From a virus, in the IMG/VR virus record IMGVR_UViG_3300045988_138000: a DNA stretch of 64,000 bases, one strand, 5' to 3'. The notes under the pieces are model-generated. The model saw only the letters and a program-made list of their open reading frames with translations. It searched no databases and was not told the origin of the DNA. The translations under genes were made by a program, and so were the position numbers. This document shows, piece after piece, positions 21,513 to 59,596 of the stretch; positions within the stretch are counted from its first letter, which is position 1; the number at the start of each line of letters is the position of its first letter.

Positions 21513-22658
21513 TCATTTATCCGATAAAGAATAATTCCAATTAACTATCTTGCCAAATACTTTGACGGAGCATTTTTTTACGTGCTTAATAACATCGTCG
21601 GTTAGACAACTCTCTACCCTTTCGCATTGCTCCCGACTTGCCTTTAAAAGTATAGTCTTTCCATCGTAGGACATAAACCCAACCTTTCGCAGTTCGTCAC
21701 CAGCCTCTCCATCAAGCATAGATAAGAGCTGCTGCCACTCTCTCTCCCCTGGCTGCTCATCAGCAAAGAGCAACGTCTGTTCCTTGGGCGCTGTCGCCTT
21801 CATCATCTCCTCGAAAGTATCGTAAACATTAAACTCGATAAAAGCAGGATTACCTACCTTGCGCTTACCATTGTAGACAGGTTCATACGACACGCAAACG
21901 TCGAGTTGACCCATCTGCTTCAGTCGGTTTATATCGGCAATGCTATTGTCGAGTACATTCTTCTTGAATTGCGAAAACTTAGGATAGGTCTCTTTCACAA
22001 TTTCCGTACCACTAAATTCAAGCATACCTAAATACTTCTTGATTTTACTGACCGTAAGCCGGATTTTGCGCTCTTTCCAGTTATTGCCGCTTGCATCGCG
22101 CAGAATGTAATATATCATTGGCATACGCGCCACCTCACCAATCAAAGCAATGTTATCAGGATGTGACACATATCCCTCGGTCATATTGAAGGCATAGTCC
22201 AATACATAAAGGTGTTTGTCGGGATCTATCACTTGCGGGTTAAGCCCAAAAACAACTCCCGTGTTCTTAATAGACGTTTCGCCACTCAGAAAAACATTAT
22301 ACATGTGCATACCCCATGTACCATCCTCATTCTTCTTCGGACCTTCCACCTTTACGTCCAACACTTCTTTCATCGCTTGCTTCACGGCAAAGAAATTGTT
22401 TTCTGGTACACCTAACTCAGCATAGGAGATGTATATCTGGGTGACACCCGAATTTTTCACTGCCTCGGAGAACAGGGATTTGGGTACCTTGCGCGACTTA
22501 GCCAAATCTGAACCAAAGAACTCTTTTATGAAGGGCTGCAACTGCTCACTCACCTTCACCAGCACCGCCTGCTGCAACAGCGACAGGTTCTTGCTCAACC
22601 TGGTGAAGGCAAAAGGCGTATTTATCCACTTTTGCGGTAATCGTTTCTCGTTTTCCAT
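21513..22658 (-). CDS. plasmid-type replication initiator (Rep_3/RepB-like)
   Basis: The N-terminus INTPFAFTRLSKNLSLLQQAVLVKVSEQL fits the Rep_3 pattern (N..i.a...LsL.eqR). Iterons lie immediately upstream. Confidence 0.65.
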   Translation of the reverse strand: MENEKRLPQKWINTPFAFTRLSKNLSLLQQAVLVKVSEQLQPFIKEFFGSDLAKSRKVPKSLFSEAVKNSGVTQIYISYAELGVPENNFFAVKQAMKEVLDVKVEGPKKNEDGTWGMHMYNVFLSGETSIKNTGVVFGLNPQVIDPDKHLYVLDYAFNMTEGYVSHPDNIALIGEVARMPMIYYILRDASGNNWKERKIRLTVSKIKKYLGMLEFSGTEIVKETYPKFSQFKKNVLDNSIADINRLKQMGQLDVCVSYEPVYNGKRKVGNPAFIEFNVYDTFEEMMKATAPKEQTLLFADEQPGEREWQQLLSMLDGEAGDELRKVGFMSYDGKTILLKASREQCERVESCLTDDVIKHVKKCSVKVFGKIVNWNYSLSDK

Positions 22659-22677: not shown

Positions 22678-23042
22678 GGTAAAAAGTTACTAAATCTTTT
22701 TACCTATTTACTATTTCGTTTTACCTATTTACTAACTATTTTTCTTTACCTTGTACTTAAATCACTGAAAATCAGTAATTTCTCATAAACTCCTATAATA
22801 TAGATAAGAAGAAACATATTTTTTCTTTATATATATATTTTAATAGTAAGGTAAAAATATTTAGTATATAGGTAAAAAGATTTAGTAAGATTTTACCTTA
22901 TCGTCACCTTTCGAGTAAAGCAATTTAGTACTTCACATTTAAGGTAAAAAGATTTAGTAAAATTTTACCTTATCGTCACCTTATGGGTAAAGCGATTTTT
23001 CTTTCTTATGTTTGAGGTAAAAAGATTTAGTAAGATTTTACC
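22678..23042. repeat. iteron field plus AT-rich stretch (candidate theta-type origin)
   Basis: ggtaaaaagatttagtaaRattttacc occurs at 22871, 22943 and 23016 (72-73-bp spacing, internal dyad GGTAAAA/TTTTACC), with variants at 22678 and 22850. ttacctatttacta occurs twice (22699, 22720). The AT-rich run 22790-22850 lies within the field. Confidence 0.75.
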
Positions 23043-23399
23043 TTAACCTTGAGAATATCTGTCGATAAACTCTATCACTCCCTGGGCAGCCAGTTCCTGA
23101 AGCGTCTTACCCGTACATTCCTTCAGACGAGCCAAGCGGAAATAATAATCCATGGGGATTGTTACCTTTACACTTTTCTCTGTCTTTAAAGGTTGCATGG
23201 ATAATGACTGTTGCGCTTCGGCTGTTGGCTGTTGGCTGCCAGTGGAAGAGGTGGTGGTAGCACTACCGCTCGCCGTACCCGTTGAAGGCATAAAAAATGC
23301 CGACTGTTGCGAGGTCTGTCCTTGCTCGTATATTCCTTCTATTTTATCCATTGCGTCTGATTTATTCAAACCGAATTTTTTTACATTTGGTCTTGCCAT
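23043..23399 (-). CDS. ribbon-helix-helix ParG/CopG-like partition/regulatory protein
   Basis: The C-terminus VKVTIPMDYYFRLARLKECTGKTLQELAAQGVIEFIDRY has an RHH layout. It lies directly downstream of parA, and the N-terminus looks disordered. Confidence 0.65.
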   Translation of the reverse strand: MARPNVKKFGLNKSDAMDKIEGIYEQGQTSQQSAFFMPSTGTASGSATTTSSTGSQQPTAEAQQSLSMQPLKTEKSVKVTIPMDYYFRLARLKECTGKTLQELAAQGVIEFIDRYSQG

Positions 23400-23456: not shown

Positions 23457-24329
23457 CTACTGAGGCATACTCTCTAAGATTTCTTTCGTAAATCGCTCAT
23501 AGTCCTGCCCTACCCTGCAGTAAGGTGCATAAGAAAAAATGTCGGTACCCATCGCCTGAGCTTCCACCATCTTGGTATCTCTGCGGGTATATGAATCGAA
23601 CACGTAGTCATCGAACTTCTCGCTCAGATATTCCTTGAACTGACGCGTCGCCTTGGTCTGGTCATTACTCATCACCTCCAACAGTCCACGAATATCCAGG
23701 TCCTCATTCAGGTCTTCCCTGGTCTCTATCACGGCATTGGTGATTTCTGCAATACCCTTTGTGGCCAACACTTCCAACTGGACGGGGATAACGACACTCG
23801 ATGCCGCCGCCAGCGCATTATAGGTAAGCAGCGACATGGCTGGAGGGCAGTCTATCAATACGTAGTCGAAGGCATCCAGGATGCTGCTTACGCCCTCGTC
23901 TGCGAGTTCTGTGCCCTGCATCTCCTGTAATGGCTTCAATAGGATTTTACGAAGGGCCTTGCGAGGCACCGCCATCTGGTTAAGAAAGGGCTCGATGCTG
24001 ACCATCTTCTGTGAGGCCGGAGCGAGGTAGATACCTTCCTGCATCTTATATACGGGCAGGGAGGTCTGGTTGATAAGAGCATCGTAGGTGGTAGGCTTAT
24101 TGTCGCTGTTCACCTGGTCCCAACCGAAAAGGAAAGACAGACTGACCTGTGGGTCGAGGTCTACGAGTAAGATACGTGGCTTTCGCTCCTTTCCGTCTGC
24201 ACCCTTTCCGAAGTACCCTTTACCGAAGCGACGCAGCCCTGTTGCTAAACTCTGTACCGTTGTGGTCTTGCCTACTCCACCTTTATGATTCACGAAGGCG
24301 AGTATTTCTTTCAATCTTGTTTCTGCCAT
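23457..24329 (-). CDS. parA: ParA/Soj-family partition ATPase
   Basis: Deviant Walker A FVNHKGGVGKTTT. 290 aa. Confidence 0.85.
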   Translation of the reverse strand: MAETRLKEILAFVNHKGGVGKTTTVQSLATGLRRFGKGYFGKGADGKERKPRILLVDLDPQVSLSFLFGWDQVNSDNKPTTYDALINQTSLPVYKMQEGIYLAPASQKMVSIEPFLNQMAVPRKALRKILLKPLQEMQGTELADEGVSSILDAFDYVLIDCPPAMSLLTYNALAAASSVVIPVQLEVLATKGIAEITNAVIETREDLNEDLDIRGLLEVMSNDQTKATRQFKEYLSEKFDDYVFDSYTRRDTKMVEAQAMGTDIFSYAPYCRVGQDYERFTKEILESMPQ

Positions 24330-24349: not shown

Positions 24350-24930
24350 AATCTATTCGATAATGCTATAATGTGTAACCAAATACACCGAAGTACATAA
24401 GTACATTAGTACTAAAGTACGAACCTACGTATCTACGTACCTACATACGTACCTATGATTTTTCATACGTGCAAAGATACAACTAAAAAACATAACTACC
24501 AACTATTTTCCGTTTTATATTTTAAATATTAAGTATTTTTATAGGTTCGCATCTATGAACGAATGAAAATATGAACGTAGATACCTATCAGCATACGAAC
24601 CCACGTACCTACGTGCGAATAAACGTATGAACCTACGTACCTACGTGCATACGAAAGTGCATAAGTACGTAGGTGCAAAGATACGAAAGTACGAATGCGT
24701 GGAAGTTTGGACGTATCGAAGTGGAAAGGAGTGGACGTTGAAAGGTGCAATCGTATAAAGTACTAAAGTACTAAAGTGCAATAATATTAAAGTATAATGG
24801 TGTATTTGCATAAAAGTACAAAAGTACAATAGTTTTAAAGTGTAATTGTGTAAACGTATAAAAGTACTAAAGTACTAAAATACAATAACACAAAAGTACA
24901 ATGGTGCAAAAGTATAAAAGCGCAATGGTC
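24350..24930. repeat. centromere-like field of short repeats upstream of parA
   Basis: 8-bp periodic TAAAGTAC/AAAAGTAC runs (24758-24790, 24810-24830, 24858-24885), CTACGTAC runs (24423-24455) and a duplicated gaaccYacgtacctacgtgc (24597, 24629). No credible ORF. Confidence 0.6.
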
Positions 24931-33320: not shown

Positions 33321-33637
33321 TATCTAAGCTCGGACAATTCCAGATGTCCGTATATTATTTTGTCCTGCAGGTCACGCAAGAAGGTCGTTGCACATTCTCT
33401 CTTTTCGTCCTCCTTGAACGTCAGAATCTGTTCCTCACGCGACATGCTTTCATCTTCATACGCGAATGTGCCGTTTTTAATGCCTTAGCACTCCACATCT
33501 GTAATAACTCTCACCTTAACGTGATAATTATCAGCTTGCTTAAAAGCCGCATCAGTAATAGCTTTATAAATTGCATTGTAGGCATGTATGTTGTTGTGAA
33601 ATATTTCAATAATAATCGTTTCTTTTTCATTATTCAT
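33320..33637 (-). pseudogene. small ORF pair separated by an in-frame TAA (either two tiny genes or one interrupted ~105-codon gene)
   Basis: Manual translation gives MNNEKETIIIEIFHNNIHAYNAIYKAITDAAFKQADNYHVKVRVITDVEC-TAA-GIKNGTFAYEDESMSREEQILTFKEDEKRECATTFLRDLQDKIIYGHLELSELR. Confidence 0.35.
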
Positions 33638-34013
33638 AATTTTCCGTCGTTTTTTTAAGGGTTCTTATAATATTTGTCTCATACCACACCGCCGCCTGAG
33701 CCATCGTGTCCTTCAGCTCCTCGATGATCTGCTTGTAGTTGTTCTGAGTGATGGCAATGTGCCGTTCTGGGTGCTTCCCGTCGTGGTCGCCGCTTGCCAG
33801 GTGGATGATGCAGAATGTGCGGTCGGTATCGTGATGAGCTACCATGCCTCGTTGCTTGAGAGCTGCCACCGTGCGGTCGAAGTCTGCAGGAGTGGTGGGT
33901 ATCACCTGCAACACGCTCCAGGGGCGTTCCTGAGCCGTGAGGAGGATGTTCCCTTCCTGCTCACTAAGCAGGAAGGAATGAATTGTTTTAGATGTTTTCA
34001 TACAATTAAGCAA
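33630..34013 (-). CDS. hypothetical protein
   Basis: 127-aa ORF. Confidence 0.65.
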   Translation of the reverse strand: MLNCMKTSKTIHSFLLSEQEGNILLTAQERPWSVLQVIPTTPADFDRTVAALKQRGMVAHHDTDRTFCIIHLASGDHDGKHPERHIAITQNNYKQIIEELKDTMAQAAVWYETNIIRTLKKTTENYE

Positions 34014-34632
34014 CTTTTTCGATGTCCTTCATATATGATGTTATACTAATATCTTCACATATTCGACCGTACACTTCGTATTCAAGACTTTCAGTTTCAC
34101 CTTTCGCTATATATTCTGCCTTAACAATATAATAGAGCATACAAAAGAGATAGGCAGGTTGGAAAGTCTCGTTGTCATCGAACAAGCGGCGTGGCCACTG
34201 GTCGATGTCGTTGGATAGATTGGAAAAGAAGCCATCATAGTTTGTATGGTTCTTCTTTATCCACTTAGCCAACTGATTGCGGTGTTTCCCTATCTTTGCT
34301 ATAATAGCATCCTCCGCAGCCTGTGTCAAGCGAATTTTTACACGACAAGAATCATTTTCAAAATTGTAGTATCGTGGACTGACTACCTCTAAGAACTCCA
34401 GCTCTATATCATCGCTAATAAACTCCTGCATCCACAATTCCCACACCTCCGTATATGCTTGGCAGATGTCGTTCTGGTACTGCTTATAGTCGAAAGTAAA
34501 GTCAACATCCTCCTTCAGACCTTCTTCCTCACACTCATAATATATTGTGTCGTTAGGACTCCAGATGGAGTCGTAAAAGCCTACGAAACTCTGCAATATA
34601 CCTATAGTCTCATTTACAAAAATCTTTTCCAT
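34006..34632 (-). CDS. hypothetical acidic protein
   Basis: 208-aa ORF. Confidence 0.7.
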   Translation of the reverse strand: MEKIFVNETIGILQSFVGFYDSIWSPNDTIYYECEEEGLKEDVDFTFDYKQYQNDICQAYTEVWELWMQEFISDDIELEFLEVVSPRYYNFENDSCRVKIRLTQAAEDAIIAKIGKHRNQLAKWIKKNHTNYDGFFSNLSNDIDQWPRRLFDDNETFQPAYLFCMLYYIVKAEYIAKGETESLEYEVYGRICEDISITSYMKDIEKVA

Positions 34633-34644
34633 AATTCTAATATT

Positions 34645-34896
34645 TTAGTCGTCTATAATAGAGATTCGAGACAACTCATTGTCCACGTGAATCTCGTACC
34701 CTTTATAATTGATGCTATAGCCTATACGGCCATAGCTGCAGAACAGCGGTTCACAAATCATACGAAAACCGTACCAGGCGAAGCGCCATGGATCTTGATT
34801 ATATCCATCAAGCCATTTTTCGCAATCGCCAGAACGTTTCAATATTGCATTGATAAGGCGTTTTAGTTCTGCGGGTATATCTTTTGGTACTCTCAT
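34645..34896 (-). CDS. hypothetical protein
   Basis: 83-aa ORF. Confidence 0.6.
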   Translation of the reverse strand: MRVPKDIPAELKRLINAILKRSGDCEKWLDGYNQDPWRFAWYGFRMICEPLFCSYGRIGYSINYKGYEIHVDNELSRISIIDD

Positions 34897-34948
34897 AATT
34901 GTAATATTTTTATTTGTCTATAATAGGGGCAAATGCCCCCGTGATACC

Positions 34949-35632
34949 TTATTTCCGATTTTCCGCTAATATTTTTCTCACGCTATAATAAGGCGTATTA
35001 AACGGATATTTCACTTCGTTGATGACGTACACCACCATCGGCTCATTCATGCGCAATGTATCTCGACACTCCACACGGCCATACATGCCATGTGCCATGA
35101 GATTCAGGGCGCACATCTTGCAAGCAATAGGATCGCTGTCCTGTGCCACATACTCGAAGCGGCGGCCAGCCGAATGGTCCAGTTTGCTCTTATCCATGTA
35201 GTGAGCCAGGAGCAAACGTCCGCTACCTGCTGCGCAGTCGTTCACCTTGCCATGATTCCCCGCTCCCAAGGCACTAATCCGTGCCATAAGGTCCGAAATA
35301 CTCTGAGGCGTGAAGAACTGCCCCGTTTTCGATGCCTTGCCACGGCTCAAATACATTTCTTCATACAGGATACCGAACACGTCCAGCCACTCGCCACGAT
35401 TCATCGCTGTTGCCACATCGCCCAGCCACTGGAGGGCGAGAGCGGAAAACTCAGGATTCTGCTCTGTGCAACTCAAAATGTGCTGGCTATATTCAACGGT
35501 GCCAGCCTTGAAAGCGTCAATGCTGAAGAACTCTATAAGATAGTCGCAAAAGTCGCTCAGAGCCAGTTCCTGCGGTCTGCTATGCTTGTTAGCCTGTTCG
35601 GTCAATACGTCGATATACTTCTTTTTATCCAT
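34949..35632 (-). CDS. HsdM-like N6-adenine methylase fragment (SAM-binding half; no NPPF/NPPY motif seen)
   Basis: Motif X TGQFFTPQSISDLMA and motif I VNDCAAGSGRLLL are present. The protein ends ~35 aa after VECRDTL without a (N/D)PP(F/Y) motif. Confidence 0.7.
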   Translation of the reverse strand: MDKKKYIDVLTEQANKHSRPQELALSDFCDYLIEFFSIDAFKAGTVEYSQHILSCTEQNPEFSALALQWLGDVATAMNRGEWLDVFGILYEEMYLSRGKASKTGQFFTPQSISDLMARISALGAGNHGKVNDCAAGSGRLLLAHYMDKSKLDHSAGRRFEYVAQDSDPIACKMCALNLMAHGMYGRVECRDTLRMNEPMVVYVINEVKYPFNTPYYSVRKILAENRK

Positions 35633-35650
35633 GATTTTCTCAAAATTTTA

Positions 35651-35706
35651 TGTGTTCTATAATAGGGCTGCCCTACTGCCAGGTGCAGCCCCGTGAATGA
35701 TGATTT
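35651..35706. repeat. intergenic cassette, copy 1 (CTATAATA + hairpin)
   Basis: ttctataatagggctgccctactgccaggtgcagccccgtgaatgatgatt. Stem gggctgc/gcagccc at 35665-35691. Confidence 0.8.
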
Positions 35707-36511
35707 AATAACCCTTCCAAAAGTAAGAGTGATGGCTATACTGGCTTAATGCCTTCTCCTTGGCAAACTCGCGGATCTCGTAGTCGTAGCCTTCCATCTC
35801 CTTCATAATCGCCTCCGCTTTTCGTGCCAGGCGCAGATAGGCTGCATACTTCTTCTTGGATGCCTTCAGATTATCAATAACCGCCAAACGCTCTTTTTTA
35901 TACTGTTCTATAACAGCAACCGCCTTTTCGGCCTCCAGACGGTCGCCAGTGTTCCACTGCCATTCGTTCGGATTCACTTCTTTCTTCTTACCGGTGTAAC
36001 GGTTGATGCCGTGGCTCCAGTCTGCGGATATTGAAACGTTTGGGCGATATTCCACAATACGGTAATAATCCCAGCAATTCAGCTCGAAGCGGTTTTCACC
36101 AAACGAACTATAAAAGCCCGTCGCCTCCTTCACGGCATCGTGGAAGCGTTTATTCAGGACCTTTTCATCAAACTTTCGGCATACCTGAATAAGTCCGTCC
36201 AGGGCCTTGATTTCAAGTTTTCTGCGCTCTATCAATGCGTCCGCGTGCTTGCAATACTCCTTCACCTCGTTGACCTTTTTGTCGGCTTCATGTTTTTTTG
36301 CAGCCGCCATAAAGTCCGCCTCCGTACCGATACTGTAGGACTTCTCTTTCCATCCATTCTCGCGACTAAACTGGTGATATAAATCTATATACCTCTGCGC
36401 ATCATCCTTTGTGGCAAAGTGGCACACGCCGTCCAATGTTTCAGACTTCCACAACCACACATCGCCATCGTTGCAAATAAGATTTTTTGCTTCAACAAAT
36501 ATCTGGAACAT
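35705..36511 (-). CDS. hypothetical protein
   Basis: 268-aa ORF. Confidence 0.75.
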   Translation of the reverse strand: MFQIFVEAKNLICNDGDVWLWKSETLDGVCHFATKDDAQRYIDLYHQFSRENGWKEKSYSIGTEADFMAAAKKHEADKKVNEVKEYCKHADALIERRKLEIKALDGLIQVCRKFDEKVLNKRFHDAVKEATGFYSSFGENRFELNCWDYYRIVEYRPNVSISADWSHGINRYTGKKKEVNPNEWQWNTGDRLEAEKAVAVIEQYKKERLAVIDNLKASKKKYAAYLRLARKAEAIMKEMEGYDYEIREFAKEKALSQYSHHSYFWKGY

Positions 36512-36530
36512 AATATTCTCAATTTTTTAT

Positions 36531-36585
36531 GTATTCTATAATAGGGCTGCCCTGCTGCCAGGTGCAGCCCGTGAATGATGATTAG
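36531..36585. repeat. intergenic cassette, copy 2 (CTATAATA + hairpin)
   Basis: ttctataatagggctgccctgctgccaggtgcagcccgtgaatgatgatt. Near-identical to 35651-35706. Confidence 0.8.
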
Positions 36586-36974
36586 TAAGACAAAACGGCT
36601 ATACGGTAATACTCCGTTTCTCCATCCTCCGGAATGTTGGCAATACACAGATCGCCTGTAGGTGCCTCGTAAATATACGAGCTGCCTATAATATCATGCA
36701 CCGTAAACTCGCCTCGCTGCTGGCTGTGTTCGCCGCTGTTGGCTATACATGTGATGCCGTTGTGATAGCCTCCAGCCGGTGCAGGAAAATCCCCGGCTAC
36801 CATCCTGTCCTGAAGGAAGCGAGACGAGCGGCGGCCCGCCTCCTTGCTGTGCTGTCTGAGTACCTGAGCCATGAGGCGCTTTGCCTCGGTCCATCGTGCC
36901 TCGTTAAACATATCCCGACGCTGTGGGAAATACTTCTGGTCGTTGCTAACGTTATATAATACTATCTGTGCCAT
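36582..36974 (-). CDS. hypothetical protein
   Basis: 130-aa ORF. Confidence 0.65.
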   Translation of the reverse strand: MAQIVLYNVSNDQKYFPQRRDMFNEARWTEAKRLMAQVLRQHSKEAGRRSSRFLQDRMVAGDFPAPAGGYHNGITCIANSGEHSQQRGEFTVHDIIGSSYIYEAPTGDLCIANIPEDGETEYYRIAVLSY

Positions 36975-37029
36975 AATCTTAAAATATTAAAAGTCTGTGA
37001 TATTTTTATCTGCCTATAATAAGGCGTTA

Positions 37030-37287
37030 TTAATACTCGATGCAGAGCAATATTGCCACTACAGCTGCAATGATGTTGTAGCCGACAAACTGCCAGCCGG
37101 TGCACTTTATGGGGTCGCCATCCTGGCCATAAAAGCTGTGCTTGGTTTGGAGCCACTGGCAGACAGTTTTCAGGGCCGCCAGGGCATTCTTAGCCATGCG
37201 AGTGGCGAGTAACACGATAACGGCAAATAAGGCCGTCAGAAGGGCACGTGTGCCCGTTGTGCGTGATATTGTGATATTCTGTGCCAT
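37030..37287 (-). CDS. small membrane protein (two TM helices)
   Basis: ALLTALFAVIVLLA and FVGYNIIAAVVAILLCI. Confidence 0.6.
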   Translation of the reverse strand: MAQNITISRTTGTRALLTALFAVIVLLATRMAKNALAALKTVCQWLQTKHSFYGQDGDPIKCTGWQFVGYNIIAAVVAILLCIEY

Positions 37288-37299
37288 GATGATATTGTT

Positions 37300-37974
37300 T
37301 TATGCGATTTTCTTCTTCTGTTCTTCCACTTCCTGCCAAAGGCGCTTGTCCGTTCTGCCATAGCCGGCCTCGCCATTGGAGCATAGATAGGCGCGATACA
37401 TTTCCTCGTCGCAATACATTGAGAAAGCCAGCTCAGCCTCGTTTTTCAGCTCGTCTATAATAGCCTCGATCTTGCGAATAATGTGCGCGGCGTGAATCTT
37501 ACTGAGCCCCTTATTGTCGTACCAGTTGTCGCGGATCACGTCGTCGGCCTCCAGCTCGTCGTGCTCATACTCAAACGTCTCTATATAGCCGTCTATCATG
37601 CCGATAACCTTCACTTTCGCGAACCAGTCAAAATTAGCTGCCTCGTAATAGCCGGACGTGCAACCGGCCTGTATAGTAATATCTATTGACGTACTGCCAA
37701 ACCAGAAAGTTTTAGTCTTTTCTGAAAATAGAGTTGTAGGGTAATAGCGATCCCCGTCGCATTCCTCTATATCGTTCCAGCCCTTTGCCTTCAACTCACA
37801 AGCCACATTCTCTTTGTCGGCTTCATAATAAGCCTCCGTGTCCAGTTCATCATACTCGCCTAAAAGGTCCTGGTCGAGTTCGCGCTCGTCAATTTCCTCC
37901 TGTGTGTAAAAAACAGGCATACCGAAAACGAAATAACGTGAGGCGTTTTTTAATGCAAAATTAGGTGTACTCAT
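37300..37974 (-). CDS. acidic hypothetical protein
   Basis: 224-aa Asp/Glu-rich ORF. Confidence 0.7.
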   Translation of the reverse strand: MSTPNFALKNASRYFVFGMPVFYTQEEIDERELDQDLLGEYDELDTEAYYEADKENVACELKAKGWNDIEECDGDRYYPTTLFSEKTKTFWFGSTSIDITIQAGCTSGYYEAANFDWFAKVKVIGMIDGYIETFEYEHDELEADDVIRDNWYDNKGLSKIHAAHIIRKIEAIIDELKNEAELAFSMYCDEEMYRAYLCSNGEAGYGRTDKRLWQEVEEQKKKIA

Positions 37975-38048
37975 AATCTAAAGTATTTTTTATGTTAGTG
38001 ATTTTATATGTAGTCTATAATAGGGAGGCCGGAGTCTCCCTGGTATGG

Positions 38049-38324
38049 TTAGGCGCAGCGCATGAAATCGTCCAGATAATAACGCGTTCCGTATATGGTA
38101 AAATACGGACGGCATTCAGCTTCAGGATCACGCGGGCAAGTGTATTTGATGCGCTGCCATCGTTGTGCCGTGTGCTCGTTTCTGCTGGTGCAGTCGCGCC
38201 ACAATACCCCTTCTCCTCCATCGTCTATAACGATGCAATAACCGCCATAATTGTTAGTCTGAAGAAAAGCGCAGCCGAACTTTAAAAGCTCGTCGAACTC
38301 CTGTTTTTTAGTGATACGTGCCAT
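38049..38324 (-). CDS. hypothetical protein
   Basis: 91-aa ORF. A TAATTTTG -7 box (38390-38397, minus strand) lies upstream. Confidence 0.6.
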   Translation of the reverse strand: MARITKKQEFDELLKFGCAFLQTNNYGGYCIVIDDGGEGVLWRDCTSRNEHTAQRWQRIKYTCPRDPEAECRPYFTIYGTRYYLDDFMRCA

Positions 38325-38628
38325 AATCTATAAGCCGAATTGCTGTTGCCGCCAGATCTAAATTGTTATTTGTTTCTTATTTTCGTTTGCAAAATTACTA
38401 TATACATTTGAAATAGCCAAATATTTAAATTAAAAAGTTATCAAATACATTTATTTTTAACGTTTATACACAATTATATGTATTTGTAATAGGTATTATT
38501 TACATTTGTTTACAATTCCCTGATCTCTGTGATATGCTATAAAGTCTATAACGAGCTGCCAGGAGTGGGGGCACCGCTGCAAAATCTCTAAAATCTGTGA
38601 TATACTATAATATGTATAACGTAACAAA

Positions 38629-39064
38629 GTGGGCACCATTGAGGCGCACCAGGAACGGCGCAACGGTGCAACGGGCAACACTCCACACCTGGCAGCATCG
38701 AGGCACCAGGACGGCGCAAAATGGTGCAACGGACAACACTCCACGCCTGGCAGCATCGAGGCACACCAGGAAGGCGCAAATGGCACGGCGGCAATACTCC
38801 ACACCTGGCAGCATTGAGGCGCCAGGAACGGCGCAAAAGGGCACGGCGGCAATACGTCCACACCTGGCAGCATCGAGGCGCACCAGGAACGGCGCAAAGG
38901 GTGCACGGGTAACACTCCACACCTGGCAGCATTGAGGCGCACCAGGAAGGCGCAAATGGCACGGCGGCAATACTCCACACCTGGCAGCATTGAGGCGCAC
39001 CAGGAAGGCGCAAATGGCACGGCGGCAATACTCCACACCTGGCAGCATTGAGGCGCACCAGGAA
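38629..39064. repeat. GC-rich tandem array 1: about 7.4 copies of a 58/59-bp unit, non-coding
   Basis: The anchor CCTGGCAGCAT recurs at 38688, 38746, 38804, 38863, 38922, 38980 and 39038. The last two units are identical. Confidence 0.9.
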
Positions 39065-39065
39065 C

Positions 39066-39099
39066 GAAAAAAAACGGGCTGCAAACAATTTGCAGCCCG
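39066..39099 (-). terminator. rho-independent terminator after 39107..39457
   Basis: cgggctgcaa-acaat-ttgcagcccg (10-bp stem) followed by a T8 run on the minus strand. Confidence 0.75.
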
Positions 39100-39106
39100 C
39101 GAACGG

Positions 39107-39457
39107 TTAAAACATCCGATATAATTCATTATACATATTATATGTATTATCTTGATTCAAGAACTCAAGGAAGGCCGCGGCGCGTTTTTTAGTTAAAACT
39201 TTGTAGTTATGCAAAGTTAAAAACGCTTTCTTTGCGGCCGCCTTAATCTTCTCGAGTACGTCAATAATAACGTTTTTTATTGCGCTTTGGTACAGGTAAC
39301 TTTCCCACGTTCTGTTATAATAACGTATCTTTGTGCGGGCAACTTTGAACGTGTTATTTTTATATAATGTAACTTCGTGTCCCCAACTGGTGCGAGTTCT
39401 CCAGGACTCGCACACAAATGTAAATTTTACGCCGTTTATTTCTTTGTTATAAATCAT
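39107..39457 (-). CDS. hypothetical protein
   Basis: 116-aa ORF. Confidence 0.65.
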   Translation of the reverse strand: MIYNKEINGVKFTFVCESWRTRTSWGHEVTLYKNNTFKVARTKIRYYNRTWESYLYQSAIKNVIIDVLEKIKAAAKKAFLTLHNYKVLTKKRAAAFLEFLNQDNTYNMYNELYRMF

Positions 39458-39492
39458 AATATTAAGTATTTTTGTTATTGTTAGATATTTAT

Positions 39493-39825
39493 TTATTTTT
39501 CGCAGAAGGTACGAGCCCAGAAGCTGCAGACCTCGAAAGACGAGCGGCGACCATTGCAGAAAGCGGGAAAAAGACGCTCAACCACTGCCAAGGCATTTGT
39601 TTCGATATTCATTGCCACCTCAAACGCAGGACCAAGCAAGAAAAAGAAGGAGAGAACGACACGCGCGGCGATACCGGTAATACAAAATACACTAATTAAT
39701 GAAACAAGGAGATAGACACAACCTAACAGAGCGGAAACAGTTAGGACGATCACAACGAGGAGAGAGAGAAGGAAGGCGGCACGCTTGGCGGCCTTTACTG
39801 AATTATTTACAAAATTTGTCTTCAT
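39493..39825 (-). CDS. membrane protein
   Basis: 110 aa with several hydrophobic helices (AAFLLSLLVVIVLTVSALLGCVYLLVSLISVFCI..). Confidence 0.6.
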   Translation of the reverse strand: MKTNFVNNSVKAAKRAAFLLSLLVVIVLTVSALLGCVYLLVSLISVFCITGIAARVVLSFFFLLGPAFEVAMNIETNALAVVERLFPAFCNGRRSSFEVCSFWARTFCEK

Positions 39826-39857
39826 AATCTATATATTTTTTTAAGTTGTTAGATGAA

Positions 39858-39876
39858 GGACCGGCGGCGCCGGTCC
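39858..39876. repeat. GC hairpin ggaccggc-ggc-gccggtcc (copy 1; part of a ~45-bp intergenic repeat)
   Basis: The same 8-bp stem recurs at 40298-40316 with the complementary loop. Confidence 0.7.
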
Positions 39877-39886
39877 CTGGTTATTT

Positions 39887-40264
39887 CTATTTTTGCAAAC
39901 TTGCTATAAAAGCATCTACAGAATCGAAATCATTTTTATTTGAATGATCGTGCAAAAAATTCACTCTAAACTTTTCATAACTCGTTATACAATCTTTTCT
40001 AACTTTGCCGTTTAAAAAGACACGTTCACCACACGCACCACCACGGGGCGAAACGTTCATAGAGCCACACGCAACCTTTAAACGATACAAAACGTTTATA
40101 ACGTCGAATGTTTCAACGTGTTTTGTGTTTTTGTCGCTGTATCCCGTTGTAGCTATACCAAAAACAGCAAGACGACAAATTGCTTTATAAACGCGTGAAT
40201 TTTTACGGATTCCATAATTAAATGGATTCTTTATAAAGCTATGTAATTTATCTATTTGTCTCAT
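39887..40264 (-). CDS. hypothetical protein
   Basis: 125-aa ORF. Confidence 0.6.
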   Translation of the reverse strand: MRQIDKLHSFIKNPFNYGIRKNSRVYKAICRLAVFGIATTGYSDKNTKHVETFDVINVLYRLKVACGSMNVSPRGGACGERVFLNGKVRKDCITSYEKFRVNFLHDHSNKNDFDSVDAFIASLQK

Positions 40265-40297
40265 AATTATAATTATTAAAAAATTGTTTGATGTAAG

Positions 40298-40316
40298 GAC
40301 CGGCGCCGCCGGTCCT
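40298..40316. repeat. GC hairpin ggaccggc-gcc-gccggtcc (copy 2)
   Basis: See 39858-39876. Confidence 0.7.
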
Positions 40317-40325
40317 GGTTCTTGT

Positions 40326-40700
40326 TTAAAGTTTTATTTCTTTCATGTTCGCCAGATCAAAAATAGCTATCTGGTTGTTATAACGTCCAAGATCTTTTGC
40401 GGTTTGCAAATCGTCTACGATTACGGTTGCGTCAAAATAAAATTGATTATTGTCTCCATTATACCAGCCGCCAAAGGCGTTTATTTCTGGATGCTCAGAA
40501 ACGTATTTTACGACGTTTGCCAGACCATCCAGGCCAAAAGAGTCTTGCGTATCTGCAACGGCTACAGCGTAACCGCTTGTCACCGGCTGCAAGTTGGCAG
40601 CGTCCACGGTAAAGCCTTCTTTGTTAGCCATTGCGATCGCTGCAAGTGCGATCAATACTTTAGTTTGTTGTTTATTCATTGTTTTAATGCGGAATTTCAT
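40326..40700 (-). CDS. hypothetical protein, possibly secreted
   Basis: 124-aa ORF (alternative start MNKQQTK at 40679) with the N-terminal hydrophobic stretch VLIALAAIAMA. A TACTTTTG -7 box lies at 40747-40754 on the minus strand. Confidence 0.6.
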   Translation of the reverse strand: MKFRIKTMNKQQTKVLIALAAIAMANKEGFTVDAANLQPVTSGYAVAVADTQDSFGLDGLANVVKYVSEHPEINAFGGWYNGDNNQFYFDATVIVDDLQTAKDLGRYNNQIAIFDLANMKEIKL

Positions 40701-40896
40701 ACTGTTGCCCCCAGCTTTATATTATTTGTTTCTTGTTTTACAGTTGCAAAAGTACTACATATAATTGTAATAGCCAAATTTTTCGATTAAAAAGTTATCA
40801 AATGTATTTATTTTTAACCTCCTTAAACAAATATATATGATTTGTTTACACTTATTTGCAAATAGATATAATTGCATACCTTATTATATATAGGGT

Positions 40897-41350
40897 CGTT
40901 GCGGTTCTGGTGGCTGGTGGCTCCCTGGTGGCCGCCTCCCTGGTTCCAGTGGTGGAGGTGCCTCCCTGGTGGCTGGTGCCTCCCTGGTGGCTGCCTTCCT
41001 GGTGGTGCTGGTGGCCGCCTCCCTGGTTCCAGTGGTGGAGGTGCCTCCCTTGGTGGCTGGTGGCTCCCTGGTGGCCGCCTTCCTGGTGGTGTTGGTGGTG
41101 CCTCCCTGGTTCCAGTGGTGGAGGTGCCTCCCTGGTGGCTGCCTTCCTGGTGGTGCTGGTGGTGCCTCCCTGGTTCCAGTGGTGGAGGTGCCTCCCTTGG
41201 TGGCTGGTGTCCTCGTGGCTGGTGGCTGCCTTCCTGGTGGTGTTGGTGGTGCCTCCCTGGTTCCAGTGGTGGAGGTGCCTCCCTTGGTGGCTGGTGTCCT
41301 CGTGGCTGGTGGCTGCCTTCCTGGTGGTGCTGGTGGTGCCTCCCTGGTTC
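40897..41350. repeat. GC-rich tandem array 2: composite 64-87-bp units, non-coding, CCTGG-dense
   Basis: The anchor TGGTTCCAGTGGTGGAGGTGCCTCCC recurs at 40941, 41024, 41107, 41171 and 41258, with a truncated copy at 41345 (spacing 83, 83, 64, 87, 87). Confidence 0.9.
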
Positions 41351-41724
41351 CTCGCCCGCATATTCACAGCCGGACACGCGGGCGGGGGCACGCAAGGCTC
41401 CTCAGTGCGGCGGCGCTCTCGCTTGTGAATCGAAGTTGCAAGGAAAGTTTGCTGGATGCGATTGCTCTAATTATCAATTATTTAGGTTTTCCTTTCGGGA
41501 TGGCTTTTACAGGTTGGCTTTTCTGTTAAGCCTTTGATTATTAACTATTTATAGGGGCGAAAGAATAATTCAGATACAACAAAACAGATTATATACCTCT
41601 CTTTTTTTACAAAAAAATACAAAAGAAAACGCTGCAAACAGATAAAACTATACTCTTTTGAACAGAAATAAACGTATATAATAATTATTTTTCAGAAAAA
41701 CTTGCAAAATACAAATATATGTAT

Positions 41725-41757: not shown

Positions 41758-42051
41758 ATGAGAACGAAAATTGACATTCGTCGCGCCATAAAAGAGCGCG
41801 GTTACACCATTACGTCTTTCTGTCAGAAGTTCGACCTAAAGACGCAGAACATCATTCAGAATTACATCAAAGGAAACCCTACAATAAAACGTTTGGAGGA
41901 CCTTTGCGAGAAACTGGATTGCGACATCACTGATTTGTTCTATCCAATAGGCGATTCGAGCGATGCACAGCCTACTATCAACACCACCGCCTTCTGTCCT
42001 CATTGTGGTGCAAAGGTTCGTGTCGGTGTGATGCTCCTGCCCGAAGAATAA
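41758..42051 (+). CDS. HTH (XRE-like) regulator with C-terminal CxxC element
   Basis: IKERGYTITSFCQKFDLKTQNIIQNYIKGNPTIKRLEDLCEKLDCDITDLF, followed by FCPHCGAKV. Confidence 0.7.
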   Translation: MRTKIDIRRAIKERGYTITSFCQKFDLKTQNIIQNYIKGNPTIKRLEDLCEKLDCDITDLFYPIGDSSDAQPTINTTAFCPHCGAKVRVGVMLLPEE

Positions 42052-42614: not shown

Positions 42615-42650
42615 CAAGTACTACGAAAGTACTATGAAAGTACTACGACG
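42615..42650. repeat. 3 x 11-bp AGTACTAYGAA repeats upstream of 42118..42555
   Basis: agtactacgaa agtactatgaa agtactacgac. Shares the GAAAGTAC core with the par-proximal repeats. Confidence 0.6.
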
Positions 42651-58540: not shown

Positions 58541-59596
58541 TTAGAACATGAGTGGTGTGACGAATATCTTGCCGCCCTCCTGGTTGTTCTCGTAGCCGCC
58601 GGATTTGTCTGCAGCGGATGATGAGGGAGCGGTGGTGGAAGTGGAGGAGGACGCGGTGGTGTCGGCGGCTTCCTGAGCCTGCTTCTCGGCCTTGAGGAGG
58701 CGATAGACGGAATCACGGAGCGAGATGGATTCGTTGTGCGCCAACAGACGGGTAGCCTTGTCGAAGGCGATGACGGTGGTTCGCTCCACGAGGTAGGCGG
58801 TCATCAGGCGGCGCACCTTGCGGAGGAGTTTGTCGCGGTCGTCGGCGTGCTGAAGACGGTCGATGAGCTCGTCGCCGAACACGTCGGCTATGTATTCGTC
58901 CTGTACGTAGCGGAGGTCGGGCAGCAGACGGATGAACTTGTCGCGGTTGTCGTAAACGTCGAGGTACTGCTGCAGGATGCTGCACGTGGGGATGAGGAGG
59001 TCGTGGTGCAGATAGTAGTACTTGCTCTCCTGCCACAACAGCACTATCTCCTCGATGGCTGTGTGTACTTCGGTACTTTCGTCTTTTGGTACTTCGGTAC
59101 TTGCGCTGCCGTCTTTCGGGGCGGTTGCTTCGGCTGGTGTGTTGATGCTGACGGCCCAGTTTTCGAGAAGTATGAGGAGGTTGTTGAGCGACACCATGGC
59201 CTCCTTTTTATATCCAGCCACTCCCTTGTCGAGGAGCTTTTCTGTAGCGGGGTCGTAGTCGGTAGAGGAGGCGATGTTGACGCCTGCGCCGTTGACCGAA
59301 AGGATTTGCTGGTAGGCGTATCGCGCCATGGCATCGTTGACCACCATACGCTGTGCGAGGTCAAGGAGGACGCTCCATGGTTTCTTGGCATAGGAGCCGT
59401 CGGTCTTCTGCTGATAGAAGCCGTCGCCGCCCAGGGTGGTGTAGTATTCGCAGAGCCGTGTGTAGAGCGGCTTGCCCAACTTGTCCTGCAGGAAGTCCTT
59501 CTCGCTGTTGTCGAGCACGCCCTGCAGGTTGGCTATCTCGTCCACGGCATTGCTGGGCAGGATAAGCCGGAGTTCTTGATTGGTGGAAAGTATCAT
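58541..59596 (-). CDS. hypothetical virion-module protein
   Basis: 351-aa ORF with a Ser/Thr-rich C-terminal tail. The long antisense ORF 58736..59866 was judged spurious. Confidence 0.65.
   Translation of the reverse strand: MILSTNQELRLILPSNAVDEIANLQGVLDNSEKDFLQDKLGKPLYTRLCEYYTTLGGDGFYQQKTDGSYAKKPWSVLLDLAQRMVVNDAMARYAYQQILSVNGAGVNIASSTDYDPATEKLLDKGVAGYKKEAMVSLNNLLILLENWAVSINTPAEATAPKDGSASTEVPKDESTEVHTAIEEIVLLWQESKYYYLHHDLLIPTCSILQQYLDVYDNRDKFIRLLPDLRYVQDEYIADVFGDELIDRLQHADDRDKLLRKVRRLMTAYLVERTTVIAFDKATRLLAHNESISLRDSVYRLLKAEKQAQEAADTTASSSTSTTAPSSSAADKSGGYENNQEGGKIFVTPLMF

Follow-up and report, generated by a model that had tools for sequence, protein, structure and literature searches.

A non-coding variable-number tandem repeat fills the gap between a terminator and an early promoter in an uncultured gut phage

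Results

The window analyzed here is a 64,000-nucleotide stretch of viral DNA (IMG/VR record IMGVR_UViG_3300045988_138000). It contains a tandem repeat without assigned strand (array 1, 38632..39064), which is a real, non-coding variable-number tandem repeat (VNTR) filling the gap between a terminator and an early promoter. Its head-to-tail units fall in the 10–100-bp range of VNTRs, its copy number differs among relatives, and it does not encode a protein. Comparison of the sequences indicates that the array is fast-evolving and apparently dispensable. Read jointly, its VNTR nature and a role as a tunable cis-acting DNA element are the explanation that we favor, with a confidence slightly better than even.

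The host element is an uncultured gut phage of about 90–105 kb. The window encodes tail and head proteins (45–61 kb), a 1226-aa primase-helicase-like protein, DnaN, and an NAD ligase. It also holds a plasmid-type module composed of a Rep3-like initiator (21513–22658, identified by domain search), iteron-like 21/72-bp repeats detected beside this gene with Tandem Repeats Finder (TRF; 22687–23045), a ParA-like ATPase (23457–24329; phrog_164, E=5e-48), a small ORF between these repeats and the ATPase gene (23043–23399), and a dense field of short AAGTAC / CTACGTAC repeats flanking the ParA-like gene (24391–24920). The presence of this module together with tail and head genes suggests a phage that can apparently be maintained also as a plasmid. 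AAGTAC / GTACTT clusters were also seen at 42616–42638 and 59018–59097; speculatively, these might be centromere-like or operator sites scattered along the genome, similar to those of some linear plasmid prophages.

The phage is common in human-gut assemblies, and the exact 116-aa protein encoded next to array 1 was listed in 325 blocks of an assembly index, its family amounting to 319 protein clusters. This family is widespread in uncultured phages of many environments. GenBank phages gave no DNA match, and tblastn with the primase-helicase reached only ~20% identity. A scan of species-representative genomes revealed no close relative, so the host was deduced from the promoter type only. A scan of viral contigs with the flank motif was unspecific, and our literature search found no description of the array 1 locus.

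Structure and coding potential of the array

TRF reported a period of 58, 7.4 copies, 85% matches, 7% indels, and a score of 580 for array 1. A preliminary description of this DNA, made from the sequence alone, had proposed about 7.4 units of 58/59 bp, and both the TRF run and the unit alignment bore this out. The anchor CCTGGCAGCAT occurs seven times with spacings of 58, 58, 59, 59, 58, and 58 nt, reproducing those described, and a 22-nt unit pattern had seven matches compared with none in 100 shuffles. The units are contiguous, head-to-tail, and 69–100% identical along their whole length; on the minus strand they are arranged as B B C D E F G plus a partial unit. Units 6 (38925–38982) and 7 (38983–39040) are identical, as had been claimed for the last two.

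The GC content of the array is 63%, and T makes up only 9% of its plus strand, which explains the scarcity of stop codons: the minus strand has none in any frame and the plus strand has one to three. ORFs of 112–180 aa were consequently called on both strands of the window's array, and in several public contigs gene callers predicted ORFs of 139–225 aa over it. We attribute next to no probability to a protein-coding repeat or an assembly artifact. The stop-free minus strand and the predicted ORFs would speak for coding, but the unit length varies from 56 to 61 bp and is not a multiple of 3, so that the frame drifts; moreover, the length of the ORF tracks copy number, the ORF is missing in relatives, and it would cross a 12-bp terminator hairpin. 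The ORFs had already been regarded as artifactual in the preliminary description. Array 1 was recovered in independent assemblies produced with different assemblers and therefore is not an assembly artifact, a reading also opposed by its diverged units and by identical alleles in independent assemblies.

CRISPR arrays, phage mini-arrays, and solitary repeat units share with array 1 an AT-rich "leader" beside a regular repeat. Array 1 differs from them in its 58-bp contiguous units without spacers. It had no match in Rfam, including CRISPR-DR families, at the gathering score or at E<5, and no cas domain was found in the 30 window ORFs scanned with Pfam or PHROGs. The locus was thus correctly described as something other than CRISPR.

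As previously stated, each unit carries one CCAGG and one CCTGG. The array holds eight CCAGG and seven CCTGG, that is, 15 CCWGG in 435 bp, and this density of 34/kb is 17-fold above that of the window (2/kb). Such an enrichment would favor a decoy or target cluster for a CCWGG-recognizing host enzyme, but equally long arrays of relatives carry only 0–4 of these sites, with 3 in 492 bp (L199), 0 in 482 bp (L007), and 0 in at least 360 bp (L015), and the 65-bp arrays of relatives contain none. CCWGG richness is specific to the window's lineage, and we find the decoy proposal hardly credible.

Flanking genes and control elements

The order on the minus strand is 116-aa gene, terminator, array 1, direct repeats, AT-rich promoter stretch, and 91-aa gene. 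The intrinsic terminator of the 116-aa gene (39067..39100, minus strand; 12-bp stem, 3-nt loop, T8) was located where the preliminary description had it, adjoining the array, with its hairpin at 39100–39074. Seven pairs of the stem are G-C, a T-run follows, and array 1 begins immediately past this T-run. Relatives also have this hairpin ahead of their array, one of them with a different upstream gene.

The 116-aa gene itself (39107..39457, minus strand) encodes a protein modeled very confidently by AlphaFold as four beta strands followed by three helices (pLDDT 93.5). Its best matches in the PDB were to a PUR-alpha repeat and were nonsignificant (E=0.08); matches in a viral structure library were uncharacterized proteins. 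At one locus (L227), the terminator, array, direct repeats, and promoter are present without the 116-aa gene. This shows that the array is tied to the terminator/direct-repeat/promoter cassette and not to that gene, and the 116-aa neighbor was rejected as a binding partner for the same reason.

Between the array and the promoter lies a control element that is not part of the array (38514..38621, no strand). It is formed by direct repeats at 38514–38553 and 38582–38621 with 78% identity, which read ..TTATAG..ATCACAGA.. on the minus strand, around a GC-rich spacer. The spacer contains an inverted partial unit (38555–38568) of 14 nt that is 93% complementary to every array 1 unit. The inverted partial unit and the two direct repeats had been reported as preceding the array, and both are present. 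In the window the direct-repeat motif is confined to 38514..38621, and in relatives the element is kept regardless of array type. An invertible segment operating through the inverted partial unit was discarded as a candidate, since no inverted leader/direct-repeat element appeared in the 42 related loci searched.

The Bacteroides promoter consensus is TTTG / TAnnTTTG. By sequence reading, a Bacteroidota-type module for the 91-aa gene was recognized at 38390..38446 on the minus strand; its TTTG (38421–38418), 20-nt spacer, and TAATTTTG (38397–38390) match the consensus and are predicted to be a promoter. The upstream 18-mer ATTTGATAACTTTTTAAT (38446–38429) occurs exactly twice in the window. 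The preliminary description had placed an AT-rich leader beside the array; the AT-rich stretch exists, but because the promoter module lies in it, it is the promoter region of the next gene rather than a leader.

At the position of this downstream gene (91 aa; 38049..38324, minus strand), gene content varies among relatives. The genes neighboring array 1 had no Pfam or PHROG match. The early region at 33600–40700 and the matching parts of L003–L022 and L188–L218 form a hotspot of variable small genes without family matches. In this hotspot are an acidic 224-aa protein (37300–37974) and a 227-aa protein (34949–35632) with a Pfam match limited to the first 121 of the 311 positions of the N6_Mtase model. 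From its gene content, the early region looks like an accessory or anti-defense region.

A second GC-rich tandem array (array 2, 40907..41351, no strand; periods 18/59/83/87/151) has 2% T on the minus strand and is free of stops. It is situated between the divergent promoters of an HTH gene (41758–42051) and gene 40326–40700. The latter is predicted to be driven by a paralogous promoter module (40747..40803, minus strand) that consists of TTTG, 20 nt, and TACTTTTG, with the identical 18-mer at 40803–40786. Array 2 stands upstream of this module as array 1 stands before its own. These paralogous early-promoter modules are ~80% identical over ~110 bp and number two to three per genome, a third, reversed copy lying near the HTH gene in relatives (e.g., L009 4820–4908). 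Their repetition suggests co-regulated early transcription units.

In relatives, the array 2 slot is occupied by other units (periods 15, 22, 23, 39, 48, 62, and 69), and no array was detected there in L191 and L193. Some contigs end in array 2. In the window, CACCAGGRAGGC is found on opposite strands of arrays 1 and 2. A motif common to both arrays was rejected: in ten genomes the longest shared k-mers stayed within the shuffled range, with none in L018 and L019. The plus strand of array 2 has seven exact copies of the octamer GCTGGTGG, which is the E. coli Chi sequence. A Chi-like array 2 was also rejected, because the octamer is missing in relatives and the orientation logic does not fit. 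The Chi sequence of Bacteroides AddAB is not known (PMC2887965).

Variation of the array between genomes

Behind an identical 116-aa protein, the same slot contained 7.4 units, 6.4 units in four contigs, or 4.2 units in two contigs, relatives with a 98% or 96% identical protein had 6.2 or ~1.4 units, and a second lineage (83% protein identity) had 3.1, 4.2, 5.2, 7.2, and 8.2 copies of 59-bp units behind an identical protein, all of these exact numbers being approximate, as they come from short-read assemblies that are possibly collapsed and that include two ENA scaffolds (L188 and L198) in which array 1 is interrupted by runs of N. The common 6.4-unit allele reads B C D E F G and that of the window B B C D E F G; the latter has gained one B, and the extra B adjoins the terminator. 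This confirms the recent expansion that had been suggested from the last two units: the commoner allele in other samples is short of exactly one of them.

The array is almost lost in otherwise near-identical genomes (L003 and L016), and its slot measures only 47 bp in L016 and L013. One lineage (ENA contigs L206–L210) retains a single decayed unit, and a deletion has removed its direct repeats, promoter, and 91-aa gene; both the remaining unit and the terminator are altered at otherwise invariant positions. The deletion (e.g., L206 2852–3041) joined the decayed unit and the weakened terminator to the hairpin/leader of the 224-aa gene. The array thus grows and shrinks by whole units, and a genome can be otherwise intact with a single unit or nearly none.

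The type of unit also turns over between lineages. Relatives at 62–85% identity have a tandem array of a different unit in the same slot, extending from the terminator T-run to the conserved flank ..GGTGCCCYACTCCATCA.., and in most lineages sampled the array exceeds 100 bp. The family of 57–60-bp units was found in at least eight lineages and is inverted in one of them (L017). Four families built on a 10-bp base period (10/20-bp units) place loosely similar units in this slot: TGTATCTCGC/TGTATGGTGC with 2.5 to at least 36 units, TGCTTGGATG/CTCTTGTACG with up to 47, GTGGCTATCC/GTGGCTACTC, and TGGCTCTGCA/TGGTGCTGCA. A 10-bp helical phasing is clear in these 10/20-bp families; in the 58-bp family it was not the dominant harmonic. 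Matches of the unit-block pattern in L219, L228, and L235 lie within coding sequence and were set aside as chance.

These observations have to be weighed against a neutral, slippage-prone spacer, unconstrained and functionless, in which the hairpin and the existing repeats keep generating duplications. We regard this as possible and on the whole somewhat unlikely. It would account for a copy number of ~1 to >8 among near-identical genomes, for unit families that differ by lineage with one array inverted, and for the failure to find a partner protein, an RNA fold, or co-variation. The near-loss in L003 and L016 and the inverted array of L017 would be just as expected of a neutral repeat. Arrays of >100 bp in most lineages sampled are at odds with the usual compactness of phage genomes. 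The second array before a paralogous promoter and a strand-biased composition common to all families also oppose neutrality: the gene-sense strand is A-poor in all five families (8–13% A), which leaves the arrays without stop codons and Bacteroides-type promoter motifs.

A further argument against neutrality is that blocks of the unit stay invariant where synonymous sites close by have almost reached saturation. Fourteen arrays were examined, and 12 of them supplied 23 distinct units; ~26 positions, forming the blocks TTGCGCC, CTGGTGC, and TGGAGTATT, were conserved in at least 95% of these units. The identity of unit consensuses between most lineages was 0.70–0.80, compared with 0.43–0.59 at the four-fold degenerate sites in the gene next to the array. 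The internal inverted repeat of the unit is preserved when CTCCAT..ATGGAG changes on both sides to CTTCAT..ATGAAG. The decay of the blocks in the one lineage without the downstream control region (L206–L210) also points to some constraint. The invariant blocks hint at a protein-binding or insulating role of array 1. Recombination that carries arrays from one lineage to another could account for part of this conservation; histories are visibly mosaic, as in L008 and L197, with a unit identity of 0.95 and a four-fold identity of 0.50.

We found no partner protein for the array units, either through HTH co-variation or in the 116-aa neighbor. The type of array did not co-vary with the adjacent HTH regulator: one regulator type, 65–72% identical to that of the window, accompanies four array families, and one array subfamily accompanies three unrelated HTH regulator types. 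An operator array of the neighboring HTH regulator was therefore rejected.

Replication, partition, packaging, and RNA

An origin or centromere had been proposed for array 1, and such a role is unlikely on the sequence comparisons. The F plasmid sopC centromere consists of 12 × 43 bp and works also with one unit, and P1 incA and F incC are iteron arrays. Array 1 resembles these loci in its spacer-free units of 20–60 bp with internal inverted repeats, in belonging to a plasmid-like replicon, in its fast sequence evolution, and in a dispensable unit number. A protein-loading array of the iteron type, serving as a second (lytic) origin for the 1226-aa primase-helicase or as a sopC-like centromere, would agree with GC-rich repeats adjoining an AT-rich stretch of ~300 bp, with the short inverted repeats within units, with a primase-helicase, a Rep3-like initiator, and a ParA-like ATPase encoded on the same element, and with the single functional unit of sopC.

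Unlike those loci, however, array 1 lies at least 10–15 kb from every replication or partition gene found, and the Rep3-like and ParA-like genes have their own repeat fields (22687–23045 and 24391–24920) 15 kb away, which are unrelated to it in sequence and are the better candidates for an origin and a centromere. The array is 16 kb from the Rep3-like gene, has no motif of the AAGTAC type that marks the ParA-proximal field, and is not beside the ParA-like gene; DnaA boxes showed no enrichment. The AT-rich stretch is explained by a promoter module that is duplicated elsewhere. A 99%-identical primase-helicase goes with 6.2 or 1.4 units, and in relatives the array is reduced to about one unit or replaced; unit families change without a matching change in any neighboring protein tested, and none of the proteins tested co-varied with the array; few contigs overlapped in the comparison of primase-helicase divergence with array family. 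We consider protein loading quite improbable.

A pac-like site had been offered as another possible role. Of ~20 contigs from close relatives, eight stop within the array, and the same holds for most of the array-bearing loci compared separately. At least three near-complete IMG/VR contigs (104445, 121434, and 108651) have both ends inside it, and other contigs read through. Contigs of these two kinds show the pattern of assembly breaks and not demonstrated genome termini, and they do not support a pac-like role.

The last of the proposed roles was a repeat RNA. Such an RNA would be a protein sponge, a ToxI-like antitoxin, or a CRISPR-repeat mimic, transcribed on the plus strand from the AT-rich leader. 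The plus-strand hexamers TTTACA-18-TATGCT (38509–38538) resemble a promoter and face array 1, and the plus-strand RNA would be U-poor with one CAGGA per unit. These hexamers, however, are of the sigma-70 type and not of the Bacteroidota consensus, and no plus-strand terminator was found past array 1. RNAalifold on the 23 distinct units stayed near the column-shuffled control, scoring the sense strand at −15 against −7.3 ± 3.8 and the antisense strand at −3.3. The MFE z-scores of the whole array were −1.4 and +0.1, so that neither analysis detected a conserved structure; a match in Rfam was absent even at E<5. The 10/20-bp families and the inverted array of relatives do not suit a conserved RNA, and the array lies between a terminator and the next promoter. 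On this evidence a repeat RNA is very improbable.

The ToxI antitoxin array has 5.5 × 36 nt, and the order of ToxIN is promoter, repeats, terminator, and toxin gene. Like array 1, ToxI is a tandem spacer-free repeat beside an intrinsic terminator in a mobile element. Array 1 differs in that no conserved RNA fold was found for it, that the terminator lies before and the promoter after it, and that its neighbors include no ToxN/AbiQ-like gene and have no Pfam or PHROG match. A type III antitoxin-like array was rejected on the order of the elements and the lack of a toxin gene in the neighborhood.

Discussion

Copy-number polymorphism at a fixed position, different units in the same slot, and the hints of constraint in the units are the evidence for the reading that we favor, a VNTR that is also a tunable cis-acting element. 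A function is opposed by the dispensability of the array, the replacement of unit families, the inversion in L017, and the mosaic histories; the failure to find a binding protein, co-variation with the HTH regulator, or a motif consistently shared by arrays 1 and 2 weighs on the same side. The units resemble the conserved flank at its GC-rich edge (..CTGGTGCC..ACTCCATCA..), are probably copies of it, and would multiply by slipped-strand mispairing or unequal recombination in replication, perhaps aided by the adjacent hairpin. If the array acts at all, it would act as DNA in cis. It may multiply a short recognition segment (TTGCGCC, CTGGTGC, TGGAGTATT) for a putative DNA-binding factor; alternatively, it may be a promoter-free, stop-free spacer that separates the terminator from the early-promoter control region. 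In either case, copy number would tune early expression rather than enable it.

A bolder proposal is that the terminator, array, direct repeats, and promoter form a portable control element set by copy number, a contingency locus in a plasmid-like gut phage. The array would then multiply binding sites (TTGCGCC / CTGGTGC / TGGAGTATT) for a putative phage or host factor. We hold this to be doubtful. If true, expansion and contraction would provide heritable, reversible variation in early, possibly anti-defense, expression or in the decision between lysis and plasmid carriage.

Intergenic minisatellites or VNTRs include the mycobacterial MIRU loci, the dru repeats of SCCmec, and the herpesvirus reiterations. 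The diversity of herpesvirus VNTRs is reportedly the topic of one published study. Like array 1, bacterial and viral VNTR loci lie in non-coding DNA separating transcription units and are made of units of tens of bp arranged head to tail; their copy number differs stepwise from strain to strain, their units are homogenized per lineage, and short-read assemblies break in them. Array 1 differs from them in that the slot is kept across the phage lineage while the unit family is replaced, in its precise bounds (a terminator and a conserved promoter control element), and in the second array before a paralogous promoter. Since intergenic VNTRs are well known, the conserved slot with a replaced repeat family and a second array is a new example and not a new type of system.

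For this widespread group of gut phages, the array 1 slot and its sister array systematically break short-read assemblies. Such breaks can be mistaken for genome termini or direct terminal repeats, and gene callers place spurious ORFs of 139–225 aa on the array. The locus can also serve directly as a marker for typing strains of this phage lineage. Should the conserved blocks turn out to be a binding site, array 1 would illustrate how copy number can tune the control of early genes in a Bacteroidota phage.
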